IMG/VR virus record: IMGVR_UViG_3300026488_000010 | Strand: one strand, 5' to 3' | Source: a virus | DNA: 64,000 nt | Shown here: positions 559 through 28,136 of the stretch, piece by piece | How the letters are laid out: each line of letters begins with the position of its first letter | How positions within the stretch are numbered: the stretch's first letter is position 1 | The notes under the pieces: model-generated | The model's database searches: none | Seen by the model: the letters and a program-made list of their open reading frames with translations, nothing else | Told to the model about the DNA's origin: nothing | Made by a program: the position numbers and the translations under genes

Positions 559-806
559 TGAAAAAGATTTATATCGTAGCAATGGCTACATTTATGATAA
601 TTGCTTTTAGTGCATGTGATGGTATAGTTGATACTAATAGTTATCCGTTGGTTCAACCAACAGCTGAGTATGAAATTGATACATGGGGAAGCAATTCTGA
701 GATATATGAATTTACTCCTAAAACTGATACAACTAAAACATGTGTTATGGCTATATTAGATAGTGGTGCATCAATGTCTCTTCAGTGTTTTACTAAAGGT
801 AAATAA
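558..806 (+). CDS. Small lipoprotein
   Basis: MKK + hydrophobic stretch + FSAC lipobox; overlaps the previous stop (TAATG). Confidence 0.65.
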
Positions 807-1039
807 TGGATAATCAACACAAGAAGATTAAAGGTTATAGAGATCTTAGTCAAGGTGAAATAGATTTGATGAATGAAGCTAAAGAGATGGCTGAGAAGGT
901 TGGAGAATTAATTTTAAAATTAGAAGATTCAGCAGACGATTTAAATCTCGATGGTGGATGGTTAGAACTAGGTAAGCGTGACTTACAAACTGGTTTTATG
1001 AAAGTAATTAGAGCAATAGCTCAACCAACAACTTTTTAA
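806..1039 (+). CDS. acb2: Anti-CBASS protein Acb2 (cyclic-oligonucleotide sponge, T4 Vs.4 family)
   Basis: Begins [23 protein letters not shown] and ends [21 protein letters not shown], matching both Acb2 termini. Confidence 0.9.
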
Positions 1040-3473: not shown

Positions 3474-4745
3474 ATGGCTAAGAAAAAAAATCAGGATGAG
3501 AAGAAAAAATATTTACAAAAAGATGTAAAAGAATTAGCTGCTCATTTGAGAACTATGGGTGCATATGTTCAACAACCTAATCCACAAATTGTTGGGTTAA
3601 GCAAATTTCAAGTAATTGGTTCGCAGGATGCAAAATCATTATATCCTACAATTATGGTACTTTTAAATATTGGATATGACACATTACGAGGCAGAATTTA
3701 CGAACGTAAAATTGTTGGTAAGATTCTAAAAATGCTTCGACACGTTCATTCACTTCAAGGTGATGAAGATTCTATTGATATTGCCGTCTCTAATTTTAAA
3801 GGCGCGATTCGTAATATGGCTAAATCATATGCATCAAGAGAGAAGCTGAAAAAATCAAAGAATGAATTCATAGAGTTCACTACAGAATTTTATGGTGAAT
3901 GTTTTTATAAAATTGTTACATATAAAGGATTATTTGATAATATTTTAACACCTGTTGATGATAAATCATACTATATGTTAAAGTCTGCAATGTACCCATT
4001 ATTTGAAGCGATGACTTGGATGAGTCCACACAATAAAGGATATTCTGCAACAATTGTTGATTATGTTTTTTATAATGATTCTTTTGATGAGAAATATAAA
4101 GATGAAGAGTTTATAGTTTTTGAAGAAATTAATTCTTGTAAAACTAAATGTACAACTATGAATCTATATGAGTTCAAAGAAAAAATTGCGACAAAATATA
4201 TCTTGAATTCGTATGGAACATATTTTGATAAACATGATAATAATAAATCATTTGAAGTTGATCTTATTCTTGGTGGTATGAATGATCGTGGATATGTTAA
4301 AAATCAAATGCTTATTATTGAAGCAATTGTTGAAAATTGGAACAAGTTACCTGATTATATTAAAGGTGCCTTTATATTAGATATGGAAAAACTAGATGAA
4401 AAAATAGCTGAAGAAGTTATAGAACTAGTTGGGGATTCTGATCAAAAAACTAAAGAATGGCAATTAAATAACCTCAAAAGTATTGTATTTGATACAAAGG
4501 TTACTGAAGATCGATTAAAGAAGATGTTAGATTTGGCAGCTGTTCAAAGAAACTCAAAATCAAATGGTATTAAAGTTACATTGAATAGTGGGTATGGTAT
4601 TTACGGAATGGTTACTTGGGTATATGGTAATAATCTAATTGCGAATTCTATCACCTCAGGTGGTAAGATATACGGAATTAAATTATTTCAACAAGTAGCG
4701 AGTAATAAGCTTAGAGTAGAAAGAGCTAAAATTCAAAGAGATTAA
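3474..4745 (+). CDS. Family B DNA polymerase fragment (motif A, fingers, motif B only); piece of a split polymerase
   Basis: GAYVQQP, DAKSLYPTIM (motif A), KVTLNSGYG (motif B); no exonuclease domain and no YGDTDS motif C. Confidence 0.8.
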   Translation: MAKKKNQDEKKKYLQKDVKELAAHLRTMGAYVQQPNPQIVGLSKFQVIGSQDAKSLYPTIMVLLNIGYDTLRGRIYERKIVGKILKMLRHVHSLQGDEDSIDIAVSNFKGAIRNMAKSYASREKLKKSKNEFIEFTTEFYGECFYKIVTYKGLFDNILTPVDDKSYYMLKSAMYPLFEAMTWMSPHNKGYSATIVDYVFYNDSFDEKYKDEEFIVFEEINSCKTKCTTMNLYEFKEKIATKYILNSYGTYFDKHDNNKSFEVDLILGGMNDRGYVKNQMLIIEAIVENWNKLPDYIKGAFILDMEKLDEKIAEEVIELVGDSDQKTKEWQLNNLKSIVFDTKVTEDRLKKMLDLAAVQRNSKSNGIKVTLNSGYGIYGMVTWVYGNNLIANSITSGGKIYGIKLFQQVASNKLRVERAKIQRD

Positions 4746-5207: not shown

Positions 5208-5461
5208 TGGATATCAAAACTAGATTGAATATTGAACAAGAATGTTTTACCATGATTAATAATAAAATGATTAAATGTGTAGTACAATCGATTATTATCA
5301 ATATTTGGAAAACTAATAAAATTGAAATTAAGTACAAACTTAAAGAATCTGATGGTGTTGTATCTTCGCAGTATTTTCACGAGGAAGTTGTTTTTGCAAC
5401 ACATGAAGAACTTACAAATTATTTAACAAGTTCTTTTACTATGGAGGAACTCTGCTCATGA
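5207..5461 (+). CDS. Hypothetical protein
   Basis: Translationally coupled ORF. Confidence 0.55.
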   Translation: MDIKTRLNIEQECFTMINNKMIKCVVQSIIINIWKTNKIEIKYKLKESDGVVSSQYFHEEVVFATHEELTNYLTSSFTMEELCS

Positions 5462-6729
5462 AAGAGATGTTAATTTTTGTAGATACAAAAACTAATAAAA
5501 ATAAATTTTACCAATTAGAACTTATTGGTGATAGAGTTGATGTTGAATATGGCCGAGTAGGTAACTCGACGCCACAGCGAAGATCATATAATGGTGGACA
5601 AAGAATGTATGATAAGAAGCGTGCTGAGAAGATCAAAAAAGGTTATGTCCCATCTGAAATTGATGTTAATATTATTGAAGAATCTTCAAATTCATCAAGT
5701 TCTGGAAATATAATGGATATCGCGATGGCACAAATCAAAACAGATGATGTTTCTAAAAAACTTATCGAAAAGTTAGTTAAGCAAAATATACATAATATTA
5801 CAGCTAATACAAAAATCAAATATGATATCGATACCGGTTATTTTAAAACAGATCTTGGTATAGTTACTGAAAAAGGTGTTACAAAAGCGTTAACAATTCT
5901 TGATAAAATTATGACATATCAATCAAGAATGGGAAAATTAACTGATAAAAAATATGATGCATTCGTTAAATTAAATGAACAATATTTTACAATCATTCCT
6001 ACTAAGATTTCAAATCTTAGAGATTATAAAAACCTTTTAATTACTGTTAATAAAGTAAATGAACAATTAGATATTTGTAATTCATTATCTGATTCATTAA
6101 AAATTATTGATGCTGCAAAAAAAGATATCAAAGATAAAAGTTCAGCAAAAGCTGTTCAAGAAAAAGTATTTGATACAAGTGTTTATGAATTAACAGATAA
6201 AAAAGAATTTACGAGACTCGTAAAATATTTTAATGATTCTAAAAATTCTAGACATGGTCACAACAACTATAAAGTTGAAAAAATATATACGGTTTCACTT
6301 GGAAAGGAAGAATCTGAATATAGAAAAGATTTGGATAATCAGATGGAACTTTTTCATGGAACTAAAATTGCTAATTTATTATCAATTTTAAAAAGTGGAT
6401 TATTGATGCCGAAACAATCACCTGGACAAACAACTGGTTATATGTTTGGTCAAGGTTTATATTTTGCAAGTCAAAGTACAAAATCTTTAAATTATTGTGA
6501 TGGTATGTATTGGAATTCATCAGCTAAACAAGATAAGATATATATGTTTGTTGCTGATATCGCAATGGGTAATTATCAAATTCCTAGTCGGTCAATTTCA
6601 AGAAATCCAGACTCAATTTATGATTCATATTGGGCTAAGCCTGGACAATCAGGAATTCAGAATGATGAGATGATTATTTTTAAAAATAATCAGATACGAT
6701 TAAAATATATATTGGAGATTACAAAATAA
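5458..6729 (+). CDS. Poly(ADP-ribose) polymerase-like protein: WGR domain, helical regulatory region, PARP catalytic domain
   Basis: NKFYQLEL..VEYGRVG (WGR); LFHGT (H300), TGYMFGQGLYFA (Y335), SKSLNYC-like STKSLNYC, NDEMIIF (E404). Confidence 0.9.
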   Translation: MKEMLIFVDTKTNKNKFYQLELIGDRVDVEYGRVGNSTPQRRSYNGGQRMYDKKRAEKIKKGYVPSEIDVNIIEESSNSSSSGNIMDIAMAQIKTDDVSKKLIEKLVKQNIHNITANTKIKYDIDTGYFKTDLGIVTEKGVTKALTILDKIMTYQSRMGKLTDKKYDAFVKLNEQYFTIIPTKISNLRDYKNLLITVNKVNEQLDICNSLSDSLKIIDAAKKDIKDKSSAKAVQEKVFDTSVYELTDKKEFTRLVKYFNDSKNSRHGHNNYKVEKIYTVSLGKEESEYRKDLDNQMELFHGTKIANLLSILKSGLLMPKQSPGQTTGYMFGQGLYFASQSTKSLNYCDGMYWNSSAKQDKIYMFVADIAMGNYQIPSRSISRNPDSIYDSYWAKPGQSGIQNDEMIIFKNNQIRLKYILEITK

Positions 6730-7436: not shown

Positions 7437-7973
7437 ATGAAAAAAATGAAAAATTTAGAAAAAGAAGTAGTTATAAAACTTAAAGCGTTATTTGAGAATG
7501 ATAAAAATGGGACAAGATCCATAAATGTTGGCCTTAAAAATAATGAAACTATTGAGCAGATATTTGCAAGATGTTTTAAACGTCGTCCACACTCAGCGGA
7601 TATTAGATCAATCCAAAAAAGATTTGTTGATGATAAAAATGCACGCAAAGCTTTTGATAATAATGATATGATTCAGGTACTAGAAAAAGAAACTGTTAGA
7701 GTAATTCTTAATAGACATTTATTATATTTTTTAAATGATGTGGTTGATGCAGCTTCAACTGAGAATTCAAATTATACTGAGTTTGCCGAGATCAGTGATT
7801 ATCACTCAGGTGAAAAAGAATGGATTAATGATCTATGGAAAAATGAAATTTCTAAAAAGAAAAGAAAAGTGCTTTTAGGTAAAGCGCAACAACTTAAAGA
7901 TATTATCGGATCATTTCAGATTCAAGTTCATAATTTATCTTTCAAATTTCTTTTATATATCACGAGTAAGTAA
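7437..7973 (+). CDS. Hypothetical protein
   Basis: AGGA RBS; co-oriented. Confidence 0.6.
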   Translation: MKKMKNLEKEVVIKLKALFENDKNGTRSINVGLKNNETIEQIFARCFKRRPHSADIRSIQKRFVDDKNARKAFDNNDMIQVLEKETVRVILNRHLLYFLNDVVDAASTENSNYTEFAEISDYHSGEKEWINDLWKNEISKKKRKVLLGKAQQLKDIIGSFQIQVHNLSFKFLLYITSK

Positions 7974-9010
7974 TGCATTTTGAATTCATTACAATGAAAG
8001 ATCCCCATCTTTCATTGGGATTTATAAATAGAATTCGAACAAGCTATCAGAAGCATATTACAAATAAATTTGATTTTGTTGCTGGTTATTGTAATGAACA
8101 TCAAATAAATACGGCTATTTTTACAGGAGATGTTTTTGATTCAAGTACTGAAGATAAATGGTCATTTAAAAAATATAGAAAAAATAAAAGATTTTTAGAA
8201 TCTTTTAAATTAAAAGGTTCTATTGATTTATTTTCAAATGTTGGAAATCATGATATGTTTCACGGTTATGAAAATTCAGATGATACTATTTTTGGTGAAA
8301 TGGTACATGATGAAATTTTAAATAACATCACTGATCAGCCGCTAGTAATGCAGGATGAAAATATTTATATTAAGGTACAAGGTGTTGATTATTCAAATGA
8401 ACCGAATGAGGTTTTAGATGCAATTCGAGCATTTGATGAAGAATCATATCCTGGTGCAAAAATGTTTAAAGTTGCCGTGCTACATTCAAATGTTACACCA
8501 AAAGATGTTGATCACGTTACTGATTTTACATATGCTAATTTAGTTAGAGATTTTCCAGATATTGATATGTTTATATTCGGACACTACCATGTTGGTTATG
8601 ATACTGTTGTAATACGACGAGAAGACGGCAAAGATTGTCATCTAATAAATAATTGGAACTTTACAAGAGTTGTTAGAGATTATGAAACAGAACTTGATGA
8701 ACACACTCCAGAATTTGAACATGTGTCCATAACATATGATAAAATTCATGATCTTTTTAGTGTTGATTGTAAGACTATAAAAGTACCTTTCGTTCCATAT
8801 GAAGAAGCATTTGCTCAAAAGGCTATTGATATTCTACGTAAAACTAAAGGCGAAATTTTTAAATTTTTTGAAAATTTTAAAATCACAGATATTAAAAAGA
8901 ATGCTACGTCAACAGATGATGATATCGTTGATGATATTATTAAAACAAACTCATATTCTGAAGCTGCAAAATTAAAAGCTTTGGATTATTTAAACAATGC
9001 AAAAAATTAA
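7973..9010 (+). CDS. Mre11/SbcD-like nuclease (T4 gp47-like metallophosphoesterase)
   Basis: DPH, GDVFD, GNHD, LHS, GHYH motifs; an SMC-type ATPase lies two genes downstream. Confidence 0.8.
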   Translation: MHFEFITMKDPHLSLGFINRIRTSYQKHITNKFDFVAGYCNEHQINTAIFTGDVFDSSTEDKWSFKKYRKNKRFLESFKLKGSIDLFSNVGNHDMFHGYENSDDTIFGEMVHDEILNNITDQPLVMQDENIYIKVQGVDYSNEPNEVLDAIRAFDEESYPGAKMFKVAVLHSNVTPKDVDHVTDFTYANLVRDFPDIDMFIFGHYHVGYDTVVIRREDGKDCHLINNWNFTRVVRDYETELDEHTPEFEHVSITYDKIHDLFSVDCKTIKVPFVPYEEAFAQKAIDILRKTKGEIFKFFENFKITDIKKNATSTDDDIVDDIIKTNSYSEAAKLKALDYLNNAKN

Positions 9011-9020
9011 AAGGATATAA

Positions 9021-11315
9021 ATGATAAGTATAGTACAAACAAAAGTGTTAGATATTTTTAGCACTGATTCAAAAACACTTGGTTATTTAAATAGAAGATT
9101 AGATTTATCAGATGATGAATTTTTAGCAGCTGCTACAAAACAGCGTCCATCAAATAAAAAATTAAAAGATTATATTTCTGATCGTAGAATACATATGGAA
9201 CAATTACCAACAGAAGAAAAAACTACAACTGCAAAAGTTGAAACAGTTGAAACAGTTGAAACAGTTAAAGTTGTTGAGACTTCTGATGAAGAAGTTGATT
9301 CAATGTGTCGTGGTGATAAATTTCTTATTGAAGCCTGCGATATTTTTAAAAATGATAAAGGTACTTTAAAACGTATAATGAAAGGTGTTAATGGTGATCT
9401 ATCAGTTCTTGATATTTTATGGTCAGCCAAAGCTGCTCGTCCAAAAAATAAAAAGATATTATCACTTATTGATGCTTATGAAGCATTACAAGAAAAGAAT
9501 GATAGAATCATCAATAAGGTTAAAGAAGATAAAAAGGTTAAAGAAGATTATGAAACACCTATTGAAACAACCACAATTGATTATGATACAAATGAATATA
9601 TTTTATTAGCTCGTGATGTTTTTAAAAATGATAAAAATACTTTAAAAAAAATAGAAAAAGCGATTGAAAGTAAAAAAACAATAAATGATATTCTATTTAT
9701 TGTTGCATCTGCTCGACCTACAAATGTTAGATATGGTAGATTTTGGAACGGTCCTGGTCATGGTAGAAAAGATTTTCCAAATGATCCAACATATGATCCA
9801 ACCAAATTTGAAAATTCTTCTCCAGAAGATAAAACAAAAGAAACAGTTCCTGATTCATATGCAAACACGGCTGGTAAAATTAATCAAGAAGAAGTTGTTG
9901 AATTAACGGAAGCTGAACAAAAAGAAATTCAAGATAAAAAACGCGCAATTGAAGAAGCCGAACAAGCTGAGCGAGATGAAGCAATGTCAATTGAACAAGA
10001 CGCTCGTGACAAAAGAATGGCTGAACAAACTGCATCTAGAGAGCAGATTGAAGAAGAGTCTGAAGAAGATGGTTCGGATGAAGATATTCAATCTGCTAAA
10101 AATTATCGTCCAAAATTTAATAAATATAGTCATCAAAACACTTACAAAAGTGAGAAGCGATATGATGATATTAAATCTGATGATGATGAAGATTATTCTG
10201 ATCTAGTTGAAGAATTTTCTTTAACACGTGAAGCTGGTAAATATGATGATGTCACAGTATCTGAATCAGATGTATCAGAAAAGTTTGGTTTTGACACAAT
10301 TAATGTAAAGGAAAGTCTTCGAGAGATTTTTCAAAATGATAAAGGTACGCTTCGTGGAATTGAAAAGAAAATTCTTTCAGAAACATTAGATGATGATCTT
10401 TTAGAATATGCATTATCAAAGCGTCCAAAAAATAGAAAACTTTTAAATCTTATTGATGCTGTCTCGAATGAAGCAATCAAGATTGAAGAGATTGAAGATG
10501 AAGAAGATGCTAATAAGATTCACGAAGGTACAGCAGAAGCAACAAAATATGCTGCATATGCAGATATGAAAGTGTCTGAAATACCTTATGTTAAAAACGA
10601 TAATCAAAATATCACTATGTATTTAAATGGTGAGATGGAAGTTATAAATAATGAGCATCCAAATTTTCAAAAGATTACTGAATGTTTAGAAGAAGCTAGA
10701 TGGAACGATGTTTTCCCATTATTAGACTTACGTGGAGCAATTTCAAAATTAGTTTATAAACAATTAGAGTTTAAAAATGATAGTTTATATTTTAATGGTG
10801 AAGAACTTGATGGTGCATTAGTTGAATTTATTATTAATATGGCACAACATGGTGCTGATGATATTCAACCGTTTATGAGATTTTTAAATAAGGTTCAAAA
10901 GAACCCATCTGTTAGAGCACAAAAAGAATTATATGGATTCTTACGTTCTGGTAAAATACCTATTACACAAACAGGTAATATTCTAACATATAAACGTATT
11001 AGAAGTAATTGGAAAGATTGCCATTCAAACACCATGGATAATTCTATTGGAAACGTCGTCCGAATGAAAAGATTATCAGTTGATAACAATTCAAGCAATA
11101 CTTGTAGTACAGGGTTGCATGTATGTTCATACTCATACCTTGGAGCATTTGGTGGAGATCGTATTGTTGTATGTGAAGTTCATCCAAGAGATGTTGTTTC
11201 AATCCCAACGGATTATAATAATTCGAAAATGAGATGTTGTAAATATAAAGTTATAAAAGAAGTGTCGAATAATACTACAGATATATTAGCGTTGAAGCCA
11301 GTATATTTCGATTAA
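9021..11315 (+). CDS. rIIB: RIIB-like protein with a long repeat-containing acidic N-terminal extension
   Basis: C-terminal YKRIR...CSTGLHVCSYSY...VCEVHPRDVVSIPTDYNNSKMRCCKYKV; adjacent to rIIA. Confidence 0.85.
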   Translation: MISIVQTKVLDIFSTDSKTLGYLNRRLDLSDDEFLAAATKQRPSNKKLKDYISDRRIHMEQLPTEEKTTTAKVETVETVETVKVVETSDEEVDSMCRGDKFLIEACDIFKNDKGTLKRIMKGVNGDLSVLDILWSAKAARPKNKKILSLIDAYEALQEKNDRIINKVKEDKKVKEDYETPIETTTIDYDTNEYILLARDVFKNDKNTLKKIEKAIESKKTINDILFIVASARPTNVRYGRFWNGPGHGRKDFPNDPTYDPTKFENSSPEDKTKETVPDSYANTAGKINQEEVVELTEAEQKEIQDKKRAIEEAEQAERDEAMSIEQDARDKRMAEQTASREQIEEESEEDGSDEDIQSAKNYRPKFNKYSHQNTYKSEKRYDDIKSDDDEDYSDLVEEFSLTREAGKYDDVTVSESDVSEKFGFDTINVKESLREIFQNDKGTLRGIEKKILSETLDDDLLEYALSKRPKNRKLLNLIDAVSNEAIKIEEIEDEEDANKIHEGTAEATKYAAYADMKVSEIPYVKNDNQNITMYLNGEMEVINNEHPNFQKITECLEEARWNDVFPLLDLRGAISKLVYKQLEFKNDSLYFNGEELDGALVEFIINMAQHGADDIQPFMRFLNKVQKNPSVRAQKELYGFLRSGKIPITQTGNILTYKRIRSNWKDCHSNTMDNSIGNVVRMKRLSVDNNSSNTCSTGLHVCSYSYLGAFGGDRIVVCEVHPRDVVSIPTDYNNSKMRCCKYKVIKEVSNNTTDILALKPVYFD

Positions 11316-11411: not shown

Positions 11412-14120
11412 ATGATCATTCATGAGACATCAGGAGAAGTAAAAATTTCAGGCGCATTAGAGCAAACAGAGTTCAAGGTTAAGACAGATGATGGTAAAAT
11501 GTTCCACATTCTATCAAATCTATATTCGAATCCACTAGGTGCTGTTGTAAGAGAGTTAAGTACAAATTGTAATGACGGTCACAAAATTGCAGGGTGTGAA
11601 GAAAGATCTTTTGATATCATTCTACCAGGTAGAATGGATATGGGAAATTTTATTAAATTTAGAGATTATGGACCGGGTATGCCACATGATGTTGTAATGT
11701 CTATATTTACAACATTTGGTGAAAGTACTAAATCTGATTCAAATATTGAAACTGGTTGTTTAGGTTTAGGTTCTAAATCGCCATTGGCAATTACAGATTC
11801 ATTTACAGTTACAAGTATTAATGACGGTCGTAAAACTGTTTATACTGTTTCTAAAGATGCACATAAAAGACCTATGCTTACAATGTTTGGTGCAAATGAT
11901 ACAGATGAAGAGAATGGTCTATTAATTACTGTACCATTAACTGATCATTATTCATCTAATGTTGCAAATGAGATTTCTGAGCAACTAAAATTTTTTAAAA
12001 CTAAACCTCGCGTATTACGTGGTGATAAAGTATTGGATTGGGAATGGGAAAATAATGAGAGATTCATTAAGGTTACTGATCAAATATTTATTCGTACAAT
12101 TGGTAATGATAAAGAATCTAATATTATTCAAGGTGAGGTTGGCTATTCGTTTTCAGCATCAGTTCTTAAAAGATCATTAAAAGTTAACTCAGCTATTCCA
12201 TATTTAAAAAATAAAGGTTTAGATGTTTCAGATGAAACAATGTCAATGTTATCAAAATTCTTTGATAATTTTGAATTTAGAATTTATATGCCAATGGGTT
12301 CTGTTTCATTTGCACCTTCGCGTGAAGAGTTAATTTATGATGATGTTACGTCTCAAAATATTCTTAGTCATTTTTTAAATGCTATATCATATATTGATAA
12401 AACATATATTGAGATATATAAAAAAATTGAATGTGATTATCAAATGAAAAAAGTTCGTCAAAATTCACAATCATTGTTTGCAGATGCTAATTATACTGAG
12501 GATCAAAAAAAGTTTTTAAACTTAGTTGGTTTTTCATTTGCATCTGAAACTAGTTCAAATCTAGTTATGTCTAATGGGAAATCACCGAGAACCAATTTGC
12601 CACGATTAGATCGTCTAACATATATTGAAGATATTTTAGAAATGAAAACAATTACTCCTGATCACAGGAGTGTAAAAATATATTCAATGATTAGAAAAGT
12701 GAAGCAGTGGAGAGATAAAACAAAATATGATTTAGAATGTGAAAATATTCATAACTATATTGACGTTAGTGATTACAAGAATATTAAAATTATTTTTATA
12801 AATAAAGACACAAAATTTTATAAAAAGCATCTGACAAATTATATGTTATCACATATGGATGATCGTCGTACAAATGGTGATAATTGGTCAGATATTCCAA
12901 GTGTCTTTTATGTAAAATTAGAACAGGTTACTCAAGCACATATTGATGAAATGGTTGATAAATGTGGATTAACATCTGATAACATATTACCATTTTTAGA
13001 TGTTATTAAAGTGTCGCAAGCATTTATTGATAGTGGTAAAGCGCCAGCAAAATTAGTTCTATCTAAACCAAAAACGTTGCGCCATGCATATTCAAATAGA
13101 ATGACAAGTTCTATTGGTGACTGGACAATGTTTGAGACAAATACTGTTGCAATTAAAGATGAGTTAGAAGGTTGTTATATTGAAACATTTAATAATAAAA
13201 TAACTTTTGATCAAATTAATAGAGTTCCCGGATTAAAAGAAAAATTAGCAAATGTGTTAAAGTATGATGTTTCAAATATTAATCAGATAAAAAATACAAT
13301 CATGCTATTAAATCATATGGGTGCAAACATTCCAACTTTTGAAGTTTATGCTGGACATGAAAAGAATTTTAAAAAGACAAAATTAAAATCATTTTTTGAA
13401 ATGTTAGGCGAAAAGATTGATGATTTAAGAGAACGTAATGGTGTAAGTGCACTATTTTACACTACAAAAACTTTTAATGTTAGCATCGGTAAAACTAGAG
13501 ATACAGAATCATTTTTTGAGAAAATAGATATGATGCATGGTTCTATAAAAATGATTTTAAATAATCATCAAATTAGTGCAAATAAATTAATAAAAACATA
13601 CCATGAAACTGCAGCATTAGCATTGGAAAAATTAAAGAAACCAGATGAGTGCTTATATTTAGATGATCATGAATTATTGCGATTATATAAAATGGAATTA
13701 AATGCAACAACAGGTGATAGTAGAGTTCGCGAATTATTATCAAATTGTGGACTACTAGATTCATTTAATGCCCGTAAAAAGTTTGAAGAAGCATTAGATG
13801 TAAAATTTAATATGGAAGATATTAATATTACAGTTGAAAATTTTGTGAGCAAATACTCTCTTAAAAAAATGTATCAATCACTTGATTATACATATATGTA
13901 TTATTCAAGTTTAAATGCTTCTGAAATGATAAAATTATTTTCAGATATATACACAATAATTAATAAAAAGGATTATATAGATGAGACATTTCCAAATATT
14001 AGTACTTTGATGGTTAAAGAACCTGATCATGTATTAGATAACGATGAAGATGAAACTGATGCAGCAATCAATAGACATGATCTTGATGCAGAGAAAGCAG
14101 AGAAAGCAGTTGCTGAATAA
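11412..14120 (+). CDS. rIIA: RIIA-like protein (N-terminal GHKL ATPase)
   Basis: LYSNPLGAVVRELSTNCND, RDYGPGM, FGESTK, GCLGLGSKSP; paired with rIIB. Confidence 0.85.
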   Translation: MIIHETSGEVKISGALEQTEFKVKTDDGKMFHILSNLYSNPLGAVVRELSTNCNDGHKIAGCEERSFDIILPGRMDMGNFIKFRDYGPGMPHDVVMSIFTTFGESTKSDSNIETGCLGLGSKSPLAITDSFTVTSINDGRKTVYTVSKDAHKRPMLTMFGANDTDEENGLLITVPLTDHYSSNVANEISEQLKFFKTKPRVLRGDKVLDWEWENNERFIKVTDQIFIRTIGNDKESNIIQGEVGYSFSASVLKRSLKVNSAIPYLKNKGLDVSDETMSMLSKFFDNFEFRIYMPMGSVSFAPSREELIYDDVTSQNILSHFLNAISYIDKTYIEIYKKIECDYQMKKVRQNSQSLFADANYTEDQKKFLNLVGFSFASETSSNLVMSNGKSPRTNLPRLDRLTYIEDILEMKTITPDHRSVKIYSMIRKVKQWRDKTKYDLECENIHNYIDVSDYKNIKIIFINKDTKFYKKHLTNYMLSHMDDRRTNGDNWSDIPSVFYVKLEQVTQAHIDEMVDKCGLTSDNILPFLDVIKVSQAFIDSGKAPAKLVLSKPKTLRHAYSNRMTSSIGDWTMFETNTVAIKDELEGCYIETFNNKITFDQINRVPGLKEKLANVLKYDVSNINQIKNTIMLLNHMGANIPTFEVYAGHEKNFKKTKLKSFFEMLGEKIDDLRERNGVSALFYTTKTFNVSIGKTRDTESFFEKIDMMHGSIKMILNNHQISANKLIKTYHETAALALEKLKKPDECLYLDDHELLRLYKMELNATTGDSRVRELLSNCGLLDSFNARKKFEEALDVKFNMEDINITVENFVSKYSLKKMYQSLDYTYMYYSSLNASEMIKLFSDIYTIINKKDYIDETFPNISTLMVKEPDHVLDNDEDETDAAINRHDLDAEKAEKAVAE

Positions 14121-14129
14121 AGGAAAAAT

Positions 14130-16130
14130 ATGATTGATACACAACAAGAGGAATCGTTGGATTCTATTAATTTTAAAATGACTTCTGCGAACCAGAATAT
14201 TTTATTATTGGAAAAAGTTGTGCAACAAGTTCAGTTAGAAATAACTGAGTGCACAACCAATTTAGCATTATTAGATGATGTTAAAAATATTTTAACGATT
14301 CTAAAGAATCAGAAAATGGAAAGTAAAAAAGAGTTTATTTTAACTACTATAAATACAGCATTAGAAGATGTATTTGATCAAGGAATTAAAATAGATATTG
14401 AAGCAACATCTGCTACAAGTTCTGGAAAGATAAATATGAAATATGATATCGTTCTTTATCAGAATGGCATTGAGATGGCACGCAATGAAAAACTTCTTGG
14501 AAACAATGGTGGAGGAGTGTTAAGTTTTATTAGTATATTATTTAAGGTGCTTGTTGGTTATATTTATTCTGATAATAAATTCTTTTTATTTGATGAATCA
14601 ATATCTCAAGTGTCTCCACTATATAGACCAAGGCTTGCACAATTCTTACAAAAGTTTTGTCAAGAATATGATTTCACTTTAGTGCTTGTATCTCAAACAG
14701 ATGATATTGATGAGCATGCAGATCTTGTATATTTATTAGATGGTAAATTTGATAAAAATAATGTACCAGTATTAGAGATTGATAAAATAATTGGAGATTA
14801 TCCACAAGACAAATATGTTTATACGAAAATTGAAAATTTTCAATCTATTGTTCAACTTGAGTTTCGATATAAAGGGTTTACTGTTGTTAGAGGTAATAAT
14901 AATATTGGTAAGTCTGCAAGTTTTAGAGCAGTTAATGCTCTATTGTTTAATACTTTTGATGCTAAGGATCATCCTAGAAAAAAACGTCCTCGTGGTGCAG
15001 AAACAAAAATATTGTTTGGTAAAATGGACTTAGAAGCAGAAGTTGAAAATAATACAATTGCTTTAACATTTAAATCAAATAAGGTTGTATATCAGTTTGA
15101 TGATTTAACATTTACCGGAAAAACACTTGCTTTTGAGAAAGTAAAAGAAAAGGTTGAATCTATTGGATTTAAATATGTTAATTTAAAAGAAACATATAAA
15201 AATTTTAAAGGTAATCTAAAAGATCAAACTGAACGATTAGCGATGACAACACAACATGATGGATTTTATTTAGTTGGTAATAAAGCATCAGAGACTGAAA
15301 AGGTATTTAACTTTTTATTTGATAGTACTGATGTTGCAAATGCAATTGCTCAAGTGCAAATTGATATTTTATCAGATACAAATAAATTAAATGCAGCAAC
15401 TGATAAAATGGTATTGAATAAAAGAGAATTGCAAAAAAATAGATTAACATATGACTTATATGTTTATAAATACTTTAGTCATTTAATAATTGCATATACC
15501 TACGATTTACACGCGATACAAGTTGATAGACATAAAATGTCTACATATAACGATTTAATTGGTTTTATCAATGGTTATGTGATGATTACTAACGGTGTAA
15601 TTGAATTGAATTGTTCTAAGTATGATTTAACCACATTAAAAGATTCGGAAGTTTTTAAAAAATTGGATACTGTAAATTCTATTATATCTCAAATTGAACC
15701 TTTACATATGATATTACATTTTATTAATGAAAAGATTTTATATGAACGAGATAATCATCGACTCGTTGAGATCAATAAATTCTTTGCAGATTTAAATATT
15801 TTAGAATCAGCAAAACATGAGATTGATGCATATCAATATTATATTGATGCAATTGCTAATTATCAATTATTATTAATTCCTGATGATACTAAAGAAGTTC
15901 TAGAATCAAAAGTTCAAAAACTATCTGAAATTATTAGCGAAAAAGATTTTTATGATATGTTATCATCTAAGCTTAATTATTATAAACTTGATCGATTAGA
16001 GATGGATCGATTAGTTGATGAATATCAACGGGTGGCAAATGAATTATCAAATAATGATAAAATATTCGGAATAGAAGAATGTACTTGTTGTAACGGTACA
16101 GGATATAAACATATAGATCAAGGAAATTAA
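14130..16130 (+). CDS. Rad50/SbcC (T4 gp46-like) SMC ATPase, apparently circularly permuted
   Basis: Signature-like NNGGG (~aa 124) and Walker B FLFDE (D155) precede IENFQSI and Walker A GNNNIGKS (aa 255); coiled coil; terminal CTCC (aa 651-654). Confidence 0.8.
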   Translation: MIDTQQEESLDSINFKMTSANQNILLLEKVVQQVQLEITECTTNLALLDDVKNILTILKNQKMESKKEFILTTINTALEDVFDQGIKIDIEATSATSSGKINMKYDIVLYQNGIEMARNEKLLGNNGGGVLSFISILFKVLVGYIYSDNKFFLFDESISQVSPLYRPRLAQFLQKFCQEYDFTLVLVSQTDDIDEHADLVYLLDGKFDKNNVPVLEIDKIIGDYPQDKYVYTKIENFQSIVQLEFRYKGFTVVRGNNNIGKSASFRAVNALLFNTFDAKDHPRKKRPRGAETKILFGKMDLEAEVENNTIALTFKSNKVVYQFDDLTFTGKTLAFEKVKEKVESIGFKYVNLKETYKNFKGNLKDQTERLAMTTQHDGFYLVGNKASETEKVFNFLFDSTDVANAIAQVQIDILSDTNKLNAATDKMVLNKRELQKNRLTYDLYVYKYFSHLIIAYTYDLHAIQVDRHKMSTYNDLIGFINGYVMITNGVIELNCSKYDLTTLKDSEVFKKLDTVNSIISQIEPLHMILHFINEKILYERDNHRLVEINKFFADLNILESAKHEIDAYQYYIDAIANYQLLLIPDDTKEVLESKVQKLSEIISEKDFYDMLSSKLNYYKLDRLEMDRLVDEYQRVANELSNNDKIFGIEECTCCNGTGYKHIDQGN

Positions 16131-24749: not shown

Positions 24750-24970
24750 TGATTAAAGTTTGTAGTGATACAATTGAAACAGATGATAAAAAATTCGATT
24801 TTGAGCATAAGATTCAAATAATGATTCGAGAAAATAATATTATGGAAGATGATATTATTAATATTGAAACAAGTGTTATGCATACACCTAAAAGATGGTA
24901 TGATTATTTTATAAGCATACAGATAATATATAAATTAAATAAGGAAATTAAAAATGAACGCAAATTTTAA
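24749..24970 (+). CDS. Hypothetical protein
   Basis: Coupled ORF (TAATG). Confidence 0.5.
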   Translation: MIKVCSDTIETDDKKFDFEHKIQIMIRENNIMEDDIINIETSVMHTPKRWYDYFISIQIIYKLNKEIKNERKF

Positions 24971-25790
24971 AATAGAAGTCACAAATGGTAAGGTTGGACA
25001 TGGAATGTCGATTAGTGATATCGGCTACAAAGTATCTAAGTTTAATGCTGGGGAAATTAATATCAAATTAGAAGATCATCATTATACAAATTCATTTATA
25101 ACTATTTCTATAACTGGGAATATAACGTCTTCTGACGATATCATGGAGCTATTATTATTAAATGACGCAATAGAAAGAAAATATGTATATGAGAGAAAAC
25201 TTCTTAATATGTTTTATGTTCCATATTCTAGACAAGATAGATTGTGCAATACTGGAGAATCTTTAAGTATTAAAGTATTTGCCAATTTAATTAATTCTTG
25301 TAATTTTGATACAGTGTATACTAAAAATAATCACTCAGATGTATCAACTGCTTTAATTAATAATTGTATAGATTTAGAAGTTCATGACATTATTCCTAAG
25401 AATTTAGCAATTGATTATGATTATGTTATTTCTCCCGATGCTGGAGCAAATAAAAAAACATTTAAGCTTTCACAAAAATATAATATTCCTATGATTCAAG
25501 CAGATAAAACTCGTGATACTAAGACAGGCGACATCACAGGAACAGTTGTACATTCTGATTGGCAAACTATGGGTGGAACTAAGGTATTAATTATTGATGA
25601 TATATGTGATGGAGGTAGAACTTTTTTAGAGCTATCTAAAGCTTTAAAATTATTGGACGTTCGTTCTATTGATTTATATGTAACTCATGGAATATTTGAA
25701 AATGGTTTAGATGCAATGAAAGATGCTGGTATTGAAAATTTTTACTGCTCTAACAATCTATTTGAATGTGAAGGAGTAAAATTAATATGA
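24954..25790 (+). CDS. prs: Ribose-phosphate pyrophosphokinase family protein; candidate NARP1 Adps (ADPR-PP synthetase)
   Basis: PYSRQDR, SPDAGA, KTRD, IDDICDGGRTF, THGIF. Confidence 0.85.
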   Translation: MNANFKIEVTNGKVGHGMSISDIGYKVSKFNAGEINIKLEDHHYTNSFITISITGNITSSDDIMELLLLNDAIERKYVYERKLLNMFYVPYSRQDRLCNTGESLSIKVFANLINSCNFDTVYTKNNHSDVSTALINNCIDLEVHDIIPKNLAIDYDYVISPDAGANKKTFKLSQKYNIPMIQADKTRDTKTGDITGTVVHSDWQTMGGTKVLIIDDICDGGRTFLELSKALKLLDVRSIDLYVTHGIFENGLDAMKDAGIENFYCSNNLFECEGVKLI

Positions 25791-26134
25791 AAAAATTTGT
25801 AAATTCAGTTGCAAAATTTGATTGGGCAATTACAGAAGTTGAAAAACTCAGAGATTTTTTGATTGAAACAGATGGGGACTTTGAAAATATGGAAGAGATC
25901 GCGACAGAGATTCGAGGTAAGCGCGCAGTGTTTATACAAGAAAATTTCTTCTGTGCAGAAGATGAATGTACACATTATGTTGTCACAGATAACGAAAATA
26001 ATAAAGAAACATTTGATGGGGTAATGATTGCACAAAATAAACTTATTGATGAGTTATCAGTTGGATATATGTTATATTTTAAGACACCGAATGGATTAAA
26101 AAGATTCTCAACATTTAATTGGACAGTAAGATGA
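25787..26134 (+). CDS. Hypothetical protein
   Basis: ATGA-coupled ORF between the prs-like and NAMPT-like genes. Confidence 0.55.
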   Translation: MKKFVNSVAKFDWAITEVEKLRDFLIETDGDFENMEEIATEIRGKRAVFIQENFFCAEDECTHYVVTDNENNKETFDGVMIAQNKLIDELSVGYMLYFKTPNGLKRFSTFNWTVR

Positions 26135-26165
26135 TGTTAAATAATACTATAAAATATTTAACATC
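26133..26165. promoter_or_regulatory. 11-bp inverted repeat around a TACTATAAA loop, upstream of the NAMPT-like gene
   Basis: GATGTTAAATA / TATTTAACATC. Confidence 0.4.
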
Positions 26166-26216
26166 TGTATGTATTACATTAAATTATATTAAATTAGCAA
26201 CAACAAAGGAAAATTA

Positions 26217-28136
26217 ATGAATAATGAAAGACAAAAATCAGTGTTAACAATGGTAGATTTCTATAAAGTTGATCACATCAGTCAATATCCAAAAGGCCAA
26301 ACAACAGGCACTACAAATGTTTTTAGTAATTTTACACCTCGTTCAGCTAGACTATTTAATGGTTCATCTGAGTATGATAATAAAATTGTGAATTTTGGTA
26401 TGCAACGATATGCAATGGATTATTTAGTTAATGAATGGAATGATACATTCTTTGATCGTTCAAAATCAAAATCAGTCCAAAAATATAAAAGACGAATGGA
26501 TAATGCGTTAGGAAAAGATGCTGTTAAAATTACACAAATTGAAGCGTTATATGATCTAGGTTATTTACCATTAGTAATTAGATCGTTACCTGAAGGTGTA
26601 AGATCACCAATTGGTGTACCAGTGTTTACGGTTACAAATACACATGATGACTTCTTTTGGTTAGTAAACTATATTGAATCAGTTACAAGTACAGAAACTT
26701 GGAAAGCATATACAATGGCAACTGTTGCTTTTGAATTTAGAAGAACATTTGAAAAATATGCTGAACTCACAGGTGCTGATAAGAATTTTATTCAATTTCA
26801 AGGGCACGATTTTAGCATGAGAGGTCTTGGAAATAGACACGAAGCATATACAAATAGTATTTCCCACTTAGCTTGTTTTTCTGGAACAGATACAATTGCT
26901 GCCATTGATGGGGCTGAAGATTTCTATTTCGCAAACTCTGATAAAGAATTAGTAGGTACAAGTGTATATGCTTCTGAGCACGCTACAATTACTATGAATA
27001 TTGGAACTTATATCTCTGCACGTACAAAAGGTATTTGTAAAATTGCAAGTAATTTACCAGGGCGCTCTGATGAGTGGTTGAATACTGATTGGCAATCTGA
27101 TATTAATGATTGTATTGCTGATGGTATTAAATTTATTGAAACTCAAGATGGGTCATTTTTTGAAATTATTGCAGATTGGCAAGTTAAAAATTGTACAAGA
27201 ATGTATGCACATAAAAACTCGTCAATGGATTTAGATGATTTAGAAGATAGACAACAGGCAGAATTACAAGTTCTTAAATATATGATTACTGAAGTATATC
27301 CAACTGGTATTTATTCTCACGTGTCTGATTCATATGATTATTGGCATACTCTTTCAGTAACCTTAGAAAAGTTAAAAGATATTATTCTTGCGAGAGAAGT
27401 AAATGAGATCGGCTTAGCCAAGTTAACGATTAGACCAGATTCAGGAAATCCTGAAAAAATTATTTGTGGATTAAAGATTAAGACCCTTAATATTAATGAA
27501 ATCGCACCTACACCAAATGAATTAACTCCTGTGAAAATTAATAATTATGCAAATAATACAATCCAAAGAGATTATTATGATGGTTATTTTTATAATGGTA
27601 TAAATTATGATTGGGATGGTAAAGAATTATCAGATGCTGAAACTAAAGGTTCATTAGAAGTTTTATGGAATATTTTTGGTGGAATCGTTAATGATAAAGG
27701 ATTTAGAGTCCTTAACCCAAGAGTAGGTTTAATTTATGGTGATTCAATCACTACTGTTAGACAAGAGCAAATATTAAAGAGAATGATGGAAATGGGATTC
27801 GCATCTGATAATATCATATTTGGTATCGGTTCATATTCATATCAATACATGACAAGAGATTCATTAGGCTTTGCAATGAAAGCAACATGTGGAACAGTTG
27901 ATGGAAAATTGATTCCAATTTTCAAAGACCCAAAAACTGATTCTGGTACTAAAAAATCGGCTAAAGGGTTATTAGCTGTAAATTTAGTTGATGGTGAATA
28001 TGTTTTAAAACAAAACTGTACTTGGGCCGATGTTAAATCATCAGATAATAAATTAAATATTGTTTTCCAGGATGGTGAGCTTAAAAACTTAACAACTTTA
28101 GACGACATTAGAGAACGTATTAACTCTGAATTTTAG
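26217..28136 (+). CDS. nadV: Nicotinamide phosphoribosyltransferase family protein; candidate NARP1 Namat
   Basis: DFYKVDHISQYP, HDFSMRG, SEH, VSDSYD, IRPDSG, LIYGDSI, FGIGS, FAMKAT, KDPKTDSGTKKSAKG. Confidence 0.9.
   Translation: MNNERQKSVLTMVDFYKVDHISQYPKGQTTGTTNVFSNFTPRSARLFNGSSEYDNKIVNFGMQRYAMDYLVNEWNDTFFDRSKSKSVQKYKRRMDNALGKDAVKITQIEALYDLGYLPLVIRSLPEGVRSPIGVPVFTVTNTHDDFFWLVNYIESVTSTETWKAYTMATVAFEFRRTFEKYAELTGADKNFIQFQGHDFSMRGLGNRHEAYTNSISHLACFSGTDTIAAIDGAEDFYFANSDKELVGTSVYASEHATITMNIGTYISARTKGICKIASNLPGRSDEWLNTDWQSDINDCIADGIKFIETQDGSFFEIIADWQVKNCTRMYAHKNSSMDLDDLEDRQQAELQVLKYMITEVYPTGIYSHVSDSYDYWHTLSVTLEKLKDIILAREVNEIGLAKLTIRPDSGNPEKIICGLKIKTLNINEIAPTPNELTPVKINNYANNTIQRDYYDGYFYNGINYDWDGKELSDAETKGSLEVLWNIFGGIVNDKGFRVLNPRVGLIYGDSITTVRQEQILKRMMEMGFASDNIIFGIGSYSYQYMTRDSLGFAMKATCGTVDGKLIPIFKDPKTDSGTKKSAKGLLAVNLVDGEYVLKQNCTWADVKSSDNKLNIVFQDGELKNLTTLDDIRERINSEF

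Follow-up and report, generated by a model that had tools for sequence, protein, structure and literature searches.

Poly(ADP-ribose) polymerases (PARPs) play a central part in eukaryotic DNA-damage signalling. Phage-encoded PARPs have been surveyed (Perina 2014, PMC4245714), the PARP of phage XacN1 is cited by Iyer 2021 (PMC7824862), and PART was placed among the most frequent viral ADP-ribosyltransferase (ART) families (Iyer 2022, PMC9503650). Among the assayed relatives, CdPARP of Clostridioides difficile CD160 automodifies with poly(ADP-ribose) (PAR) in vitro when activated DNA is supplied, rucaparib blocks the enzyme (PMC5966428), and its PAR product is removed by its own PARG (PMC5966428, PMC8120803). 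HaPARP of Herpetosiphon aurantiacus makes PAR in vitro and requires DNA to do so (PMC8120803), and Pyl1 of Yarrowia lipolytica makes genuine PAR in vitro and modifies Ku70/80 (PMC12412787). Here we describe P0001, a PARP encoded at positions 5458-6729 of a 64-kb stretch of viral DNA (IMG/VR record IMGVR_UViG_3300026488_000010; hereafter the window) from the ∼287-kb genome of an uncultured jumbo phage. The gene encodes an intact, compact PARP consisting of a WGR domain, a helical regulatory subdomain (HD), and an ART domain, and it is under selection. Phage PARPs with this WGR-HD-ART architecture are already known, and P0001 adds a further one.

Architecture and conservation of the phage PARP

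The P0001 gene has a GGAGGA Shine-Dalgarno ribosome-binding site 9 nt 5' of its ATG, the ATG overlaps the preceding stop codon (ATGA), and its own stop codon overlaps the following start (TAATG). The ribosome-binding site and the overlaps indicate that the gene belongs to a tightly coupled co-directional string. The gene and its domains are as follows:

5458..6729, + strand: PARP gene P0001, 423 aa (open reading frame (ORF) with Pfam, PHROG, phmmer, AlphaFold, Foldseek, and dN/dS evidence)
5458..5655, + strand: WGR domain, residues 1-66, with the motif Y31-G32-R33 (PF05406 and PARP2 contact mapping)
5746..6144, + strand: helical regulatory (HD) subdomain, approximately residues 97-229 (phmmer to the PARP1/PARP2 HD and model helices)
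6175..6726, + strand: ART catalytic domain of compact form, residues 240-423, with H300/Y335/E404 (Pfam, alignments, and a Y-to-E spacing of 69)

The catalytic domain was matched by Pfam PF00644 over residues 248-383 (E 7.2e-30, 104.4 bits against a cut-off of 26.7) and the N-terminal domain by PF05406 (WGR) over residues 1-66 (E 7.6e-7, 29.6 bits against a cut-off of 22), while phrog_23333, a PHROG family of phage proteins, covers P0001 end to end (E 8.6e-48). The Pfam HD family, PF02877, was not detected in P0001 at E<=0.01, though it is recorded for most homologues. In a phmmer search of the PDB, human PARP2 aligned with residues 10-349 and 399-421, and PARP1 aligned through its helical and ART domains with residues 101-376. 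An AlphaFold model built with 70 homologues as input (predicted local distance difference test 87.4, predicted template-modelling score 0.80) contains a WGR domain of beta-sheet plus helix and HD helices at residues 97-116, 138-155, 163-179, and 197-226. The best Foldseek match of this model was the WGR-CAT portion of PARP1 on a DNA double-strand break (7s6h_B, E 4e-26, TM 0.59-0.66), with PARP2 also among the best matches.

The catalytic motifs consist of TGYMFGQGLYFA at residues 326-337, KSLNYC at 342-347, H300 within LFHGT, Y335, and E404 within NDEM. In an alignment of the 70 homologues, the invariant ART residues are H300, G301, Y335, K342, S343, Y346, and E404, and those of the WGR domain are N15, K16, G32, R33, K58, and Y63. 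When aligned to PARP1/2, G301, K342, S343, and Y346 are the equivalents of the PARP1 NAD+ site residues G863, K903, S904, and Y907. An earlier note on this DNA, made from the sequence by itself, had described a phage-borne WGR-regulatory-catalytic protein with an intact H-Y-E triad; the Pfam, PHROG, and phmmer matches and the invariance of the triad agree with that description, the PARP1/2-type motifs it quoted are present, and the catalytic E404 was correctly numbered.

A word-indexed protein search returned 548 homologues at E<=1e-5, and an exhaustive search with a threshold of E<=1e-30 returned 324 cluster representatives, most of them by far with lengths of 410-450 aa. From a scan of IMG/VR, 80 viral PARP loci were kept, many on contigs of 150-500 kb, and a scan of species genomes gave 64 loci, mostly from Armatimonadota, Mycobacterium, Bacillus relatives, and megaplasmids. 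A megablast search with the 5 kb around the PARP gene found no match among deposited phages. The gene is under strong purifying selection. For the comparison with an orthologue of 91% identity from a metagenome scaffold of 108.7 kb (L003), the ratio of nonsynonymous to synonymous substitution rates (dN/dS) was 0.058 at a dS of ∼1, and against relatives 69 to 70% identical it was ∼0.22 to 0.23. These values bear on the explanation that the gene is a passenger or is decaying and has no role in this phage. The distribution of the family is patchy, with viral, bacterial, and fungal sequences mixed in the tree in a manner that suggests frequent transfer, and a 67%-identical relative (L166:4001-5283) has its PARP split into ORFs of 68 and 352 aa, by a frameshift or stop codon or by an assembly error. 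Set against this, the low dN/dS is accompanied by catalytic residues that are all intact, a strong ribosome-binding site, translational coupling, and synteny that is kept in relatives with 70 to 91% identical PARPs. We therefore regard a passenger gene as highly improbable.

The spacing between the catalytic Tyr and Glu is 69 residues in P0001 and 67-72 across the family, compared with 92 in PARP1, and alignment with Drosophila PARP1 revealed two ART deletions located after the NYC motif and before the catalytic Glu. The Y-to-E distance is likewise 69 in CdPARP, whose triad is H322/Y359/E428 (PMC5966428). The same study reported that bacterial PARPs most often have Tyr at the first position of their WGR motif and named three co-evolving WGR patches, which correspond to N13-Y18, Y31-G35, and K58-Y63 of P0001; the conserved WGR residues N13, N15, K16, Y18, K58, and Y63 are present. 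Based on the 69-residue spacing, the ART deletions, the Tyr-type WGR motif, and the patches, P0001 is a typical compact prokaryotic PARP and not a eukaryotic copy. By its sequence, it belongs to the compact bacterial/phage/fungal family, the class of CdPARP, HaPARP, and Pyl1.

A FastTree phylogeny of 145 sequences, rooted on Drosophila PARP1 as the single eukaryotic PARP1, supports this placement. The group that contains P0001 is made up of viral and metagenomic sequences plus contigs from metagenome-assembled genomes assigned to Sulfurovum and Thioploca (60-62% identity). Its sister group consists of the PARP of Klebsiella phage FBKp34 together with fungal compact PARPs (joint clade support 0.994), and viral and bacterial PARPs are interleaved over the remainder of the tree. 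The fungal sequences from Smittium, Hesseltinella, Coemansia, and Yarrowia (P0103, P0104, P0107, and P0276) lie inside the phage-dominated clade as sister to FBKp34 (support 1.0), and this nesting may reflect gene exchange of fungal lineages with those of phages or bacteria. The source lineage has no cultured relatives and is possibly a Campylobacterota phage. The earlier note had called the architecture eukaryote-like and had suggested a phylogeny against bacterial and eukaryotic PARPs. That phylogeny places P0001 in a prokaryote/phage clade and does not support a eukaryotic affinity, since the few fungal members appear nested within it, and the label is misleading for a protein whose loops before the catalytic Glu are ∼23 to 27 residues shorter than those of PARP1/2.

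Predicted activity and nucleic-acid sensing

By analogy with the assayed enzymes, it is very likely that P0001 has ADP-ribosyltransferase activity. Polymer formation, which the earlier note had thought plausible, can be considered plausible to likely because the same compact ART is found in CdPARP, HaPARP, and Pyl1, all of which make PAR in vitro. For the last of these, the comparison was made with the PARP of Yarrowia sp. B02 (P0276), which by name and length only is taken to be the Pyl1 orthologue. P0001 is 48% identical to this protein over 262 residues, spanning the C-terminal part of the HD and the ART domain with no loop differences, and 39% identical in the WGR region.

Nucleic-acid gating is probable, judging from the WGR residues. 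The PARP2 residues that touch a DNA break and that were used for mapping (N127, N129, K130, Y132, W151, R153, K179, and K183; PMC6294510) correspond, via the phmmer alignment, to N13, N15, K16, Y18, Y31, R33, K54, and K58 of P0001. At six of the eight positions the residue is invariant in the family or almost so, Y31 varies among aromatic residues, and position 54 is Lys in 29 of the 70 homologues. In addition, the invariant Y63, located in a KKGY motif, is the probable equivalent of Y201, the 5'-phosphate sensor of PARP2.

Our preferred interpretation, which we hold to be probable though far from secure, is that P0001 would be an active NAD+-dependent enzyme that carries out break-gated (poly)ADP-ribosylation during phage DNA metabolism. 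From PARP1/2, HaPARP, and CdPARP, on which the mechanism is modelled, we infer an activating ligand, substrates, and a role in infection as follows. The N-terminal WGR domain would bind a nucleic-acid break, for which 5'-phosphorylated nicks or ends of phage DNA or of degraded host DNA are candidates. Contact with the break through R33 and N13/N15 would loosen the autoinhibitory helical domain, and NAD+ would thereby gain the H300-Y335-E404 site. ADP-ribose would then be added, probably as short chains, onto the PARP itself and nearby proteins, or possibly onto DNA ends. Lastly, a helical protein of a family encoded next to the PARP gene (p178, described below) could serve as a target, adaptor, or regulator of the enzyme.

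Several points weigh against this interpretation. PARP3 and PARP4 have the H-Y-E triad yet add single units, and the triad is therefore no proof of polymer formation. The loops before the catalytic Glu are short relative to PARP1/2, as given above. The W of the WGR motif is Y31 in P0001, and the alignment around the PARP2 sensor Y201 is ambiguous. Pyl1 is active without added DNA in vitro (PMC12412787), and our literature search found no functional study of any phage PARP. The linkage to p178 comes from nine loci of one clade, some of them from related phages and two from a metagenome scan. With respect to erasers, the scanned ORFs of the 64-kb window, which covers part of the ∼287-kb genome, yielded no PARG, macro, or ARH domain, and neither PARG (PF10021) nor ARH (PF03747) was found in five related phage records.

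Among the same five records, a Macro match above the cut-off occurred only in XacN1, far from its PARP gene. Near phage PARPs we also observed a family of ∼171 aa at eight viral loci and one bacterial locus, including gp105 of FBKp34, annotated as a 'putative phosphatase' (L001:9052-9567), which has a weak Macro match (E 0.0014) below the cut-off. By sequence, this macro-like family may be a divergent eraser.

A different substrate is envisaged if P0001 is a nucleic-acid end modifier, that is, if it ADP-ribosylates phosphorylated DNA or RNA termini, as PARP2 and PARP3 do in vitro, and thereby caps phage ends and nicks against host exonucleases or marks host DNA. PARP2 is reported to ADP-ribosylate DNA besides proteins (PMC8190142), the WGR-only architecture of P0001 is that of PARP2/3, and the neighbouring genes encode end-processing functions (an SbcD-like nuclease, a Rad50-like ATPase, an RNA ligase, and a PNK-like kinase). 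However, the assayed relatives CdPARP, HaPARP, and Pyl1 modify proteins, and end modification is not known from any prokaryotic or phage PARP. We consider this explanation very doubtful.

Genes surrounding the PARP gene

The neighbouring features that bear on the role of P0001 are as follows:

806..1039, + strand: Acb2/Tad1 hairpin-domain protein, 77 aa, 4.4 kb upstream of the PARP gene (PF24729, E 1.2e-13, above cut-off)
7437..7973, + strand: p178, 178 aa, all-helical, two genes downstream of the PARP gene (C-terminal ∼97-aa domain linked to PARP)
7973..9010, + strand: calcineurin-like metallophosphoesterase, 345 aa, weakly SbcD/Mre11-like (phrog_100, NCBIfam SbcD, PF00149 in the orthologue, Atlas structure)
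9021..11315, + strand: rIIB homologue, 764 aa, with N-terminal repeats (phrog_609, E 4.5e-73; PF26926 Phage_T4_rIIB recorded for the orthologue)
11412..14120, + strand: rIIA homologue (phrog_612, E 3.7e-83)
14130..16130, + strand: Rad50/SbcC/SMC-like ATPase (AAA_23), 666 aa (profile matches, motifs)
24954..28136, + strand: NARP1-like pair of a PRS-like gene (24954-25790) and a Nampt-like gene (26217-28136) (NARP1 gene order)

In the P0001 clade, PARP is linked to a ∼97-aa helical domain found at the C terminus of p178. This domain flanks PARP in nine loci of the clade, in which the other neighbours are largely unrelated:

∼97-aa domain loci, first group: window 7437-7973; L011:7704-9023; L012:9254-10120; L014:2916-3224; L010:9303-9599
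∼97-aa domain loci, second group: L009:9696-10013; L013:7683-7955; L003:11971-12492; L166:5395-5628

At four of these loci the domain immediately follows PARP; at a fifth it is 112 nt downstream, at another it is one gene more distant, and at one it immediately precedes PARP. It is present as well in the relative with the 91%-identical PARP. Four viral contigs of 18 to 182 kb each have one copy of the domain, in every case next to PARP. Because the domain flanks the PARP gene throughout the PARP clade, the p178-family protein is a suggestive candidate for a PARP partner. No Pfam, PHROG, or PADLOC family matches p178, and single-sequence scans with it gave no new relatives. Its confident all-helical model gave nothing in Foldseek at E<=0.001, and the best VIA-align match (Z 6.7) was to generic helical bundles and is uninformative. 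The domain evolves faster than the PARP (dN/dS 0.36), and the N-terminal half of p178 (7437-7600) weakly matches the profile of a ∼45-aa rIIB repeat (E 0.008).

In other clades, the commonest neighbour is a ∼221-aa protein (family A2; e.g., L017:3587-4279 and L015:9779-10465), which is usually encoded directly downstream of PARP and occurs in 35 of 140 dereplicated loci, both viral and bacterial. It carries weak RNase H1-N/L9-like and AbrB/MazE-like signals. Profile hidden Markov models of this family and of the ∼171-aa macro-like family detected nothing in the window.

Beyond p178, the order of a DNA-polymerase piece, PARP, the SbcD-like gene, rIIB, and rIIA recurs in relatives with 70 to 91% identical PARPs. 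The polymerase piece, a 423-aa ORF at 3474-4745, is conserved in relatives and matches family B DNA polymerases only in their middle part (positions 368-549 of the 856 in the phrog_262 profile). The phage DNA polymerase thus seems to be divided among separate genes. Further along the window are genes for SSB, an RNA ligase, a PNK-like kinase, the PRS-like and Nampt-like pair, a CCA-adding enzyme, a helicase, ThyX, a dNMP kinase, and a dUTPase. Given this co-directional string of replication, recombination, and counter-defence genes, P0001 probably acts during phage DNA replication and recombination. A promoter and terminator scan of the AT-rich window performed no better than shuffled sequences, and no tRNAs were found in the window.

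The earlier note had placed the PARP gene just upstream of Mre11 and Rad50 homologues. The first part is partly right: a gene that begins 1.2 kb downstream is SbcD-like by recurring but weak matches, namely phrog_100 at E 3.2e-5, NCBIfam SbcD at E 3.4e-4 and far below the cut-off, and the PDB at E 0.24. PF00149 is recorded for its 90%-identical orthologue, and its Atlas structure resembles Metallophos clusters and clusters of phage Metallophos+AAA_23 fusions. The second part does not hold for the adjacent gene. A Rad50 identity for the 764-aa ORF at 9021-11315 was rejected on the phrog_609 match, which identifies rIIB; rIIA follows, and the Rad50-like ATPase starts at 14130, 7.4 kb downstream of PARP and beyond rIIA. 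The link of PARP to repair through Mre11/Rad50 is thus one of loose proximity only. Searches of the PDB with the sequences of the 345-, 764-, and 666-aa neighbours gave weak or no matches, and tblastn searches against phages were nearly empty. Two features of these proteins were observed in passing. The rIIB homologue has a ∼45-aa repeat (F.NDK.TL...RP.N) in three strong copies and one weak copy. The ATPase begins with an ABC C-lobe-like region at residues 1-215 (Walker B-like FDES). After this come the N-lobe, with its Walker A motif (GNNNIGKS) at residue 255, then a coiled coil and, at the end, a CxxC, an order in which this Rad50/SbcC-like protein appears circularly permuted.

The window also contains genes directed at host defences. 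The Acb2/Tad1 protein is, from its domain match, likely a sponge for CBASS or Thoeris signalling nucleotides, and the PRS-like and Nampt-like genes have the order of NARP1, an NAD+ rebuilding pair (10.1101/2024.02.11.579819). The Nampt-like protein (639 aa) has a ∼75-aa insert relative to phrog_448. Genes of the NAPRTase family occur in three of five other PARP-bearing phage records and also beside PARP on a further contig (that of P0074).

These genes are relevant to the main rival explanation, in which P0001 serves host take-over or counter-defence and mainly modifies host end-processing or defence nucleases or the transcription machinery, and not phage repair. Such a PARP would parallel T4 Alt/ModA/ModB or the ADP-ribosylating anti-CRISPR AcrIF11, with the difference that it would make polymers. 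Same-strand counter-defence genes (Acb2/Tad1, the NARP1-like pair, and rIIA/rIIB) are abundant in the window, the PARP gene is flanked by small, fast-evolving ORFs typical of early take-over regions, and phage PARPs have been proposed to act as other phage ARTs do but with polymers (Iyer et al., PMC7824862). The conserved WGR contacts and the HD, however, point to nucleic-acid-gated activity, which would be superfluous for a constitutive host-modifying toxin. Moreover, the PARP is matched by nothing in PADLOC, and neither PADLOC nor PHROG gives it an anti-defence label. On balance, we judge a mainly host-directed role to be rather unlikely.

Returning to break-gated ADP-ribosylation in phage DNA metabolism, a more elaborate version can be drawn from the same neighbourhood. 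PARP and the p178-family protein might form a clade-specific two-gene module, with the latter acting as an HPF1-like adaptor or a dedicated substrate at DNA ends, while the NARP1-like pair might recycle nicotinamide and ADP-ribose. This proposal is a long shot. If it is true, the module and the NARP1-like pair would constitute a self-contained phage NAD+ cycle for ADP-ribose signalling in replication or counter-defence.

Comparison with known PARPs and phage ADP-ribosyltransferases

A tblastn search found full-length relatives of P0001 in 14 deposited phage records, several of them annotated as PARP, and the FBKp34 record lists the three domains. The known phage PARPs are ∼420 to 430 aa, and the identities that follow extend over 98 to 99% of the P0001 query. 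Klebsiella phage vB_KpM_FBKp34 gp111 (QQV91759.1, 'poly [ADP-ribose] polymerase') is a WGR-HD-ART protein of the same clade with 43% identity to P0001. The PARPs of Xanthomonas phages XacN1 and Xoo-sp13 and of Stenotrophomonas phages CM1 and RAS14 are 31 to 33% identical, and that of Cellulophaga phage phi4:1 is 25% identical. FBKp34 and the others differ from the P0001 phage in that they are of another lineage, with no nucleotide match, and have other neighbours; FBKp34 is without a p178-type domain and, 2.4 kb upstream of the PARP gene, carries one that is weakly macro-like.

Among bacterial enzymes, CdPARP and HaPARP are three-domain proteins of 47 to 52 kDa, a group in which Tyr likewise often replaces the WGR Trp, and CdPARP shares with P0001 the Y-to-E spacing and the three conserved WGR patches. 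The hosts of CdPARP and HaPARP also encode PARG, whereas none turned up in the scanned ORFs of the window. Other bacterial relatives are ∼25 to 36% identical to P0001. The fungal PARPs from Smittium and Hesseltinella are 38 to 39% identical to P0001 over the full length. Those of Yarrowia have a ∼150-aa insert in the helical region. Pyl1 acts at telomeres and is DNA-independent in vitro (PMC12412787). Human PARP2 and PARP1 (6usj, 6x0l, 7s6h, and 4dqy) are the best PDB matches and share with P0001 the domain order, triad, NAD+ site, and WGR contacts; their identity to P0001 is ∼20%, and P0001 is without the zinc fingers, BRCT domain, and disordered N-terminus.

T4 Alt, ModA, and ModB are, like P0001 (by prediction), phage-encoded NAD+-dependent ADP-ribosyltransferases, and the T4 enzymes are used early in infection. 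They belong to the R-S-E clade, transfer single units (or RNA), and are without WGR or HD (PMC8120803, PMC9503650). The distinction that the earlier note drew from T4 Alt/Mod is justified, since the active site of P0001 is H-Y-E in a PF00644 fold and not Arg-Ser-Glu, and the T4 enzymes are not homologous to P0001 at the family level used. Relative to these systems, the new details of the present locus are the p178-family domain that flanks PARP and the occurrence of an Acb2/Tad1 gene and a NARP1-like pair within the same window. Large phages often carry PARP, and P0001 is a well-conserved example with a candidate partner gene, located near NAD+-centred counter-defence genes.

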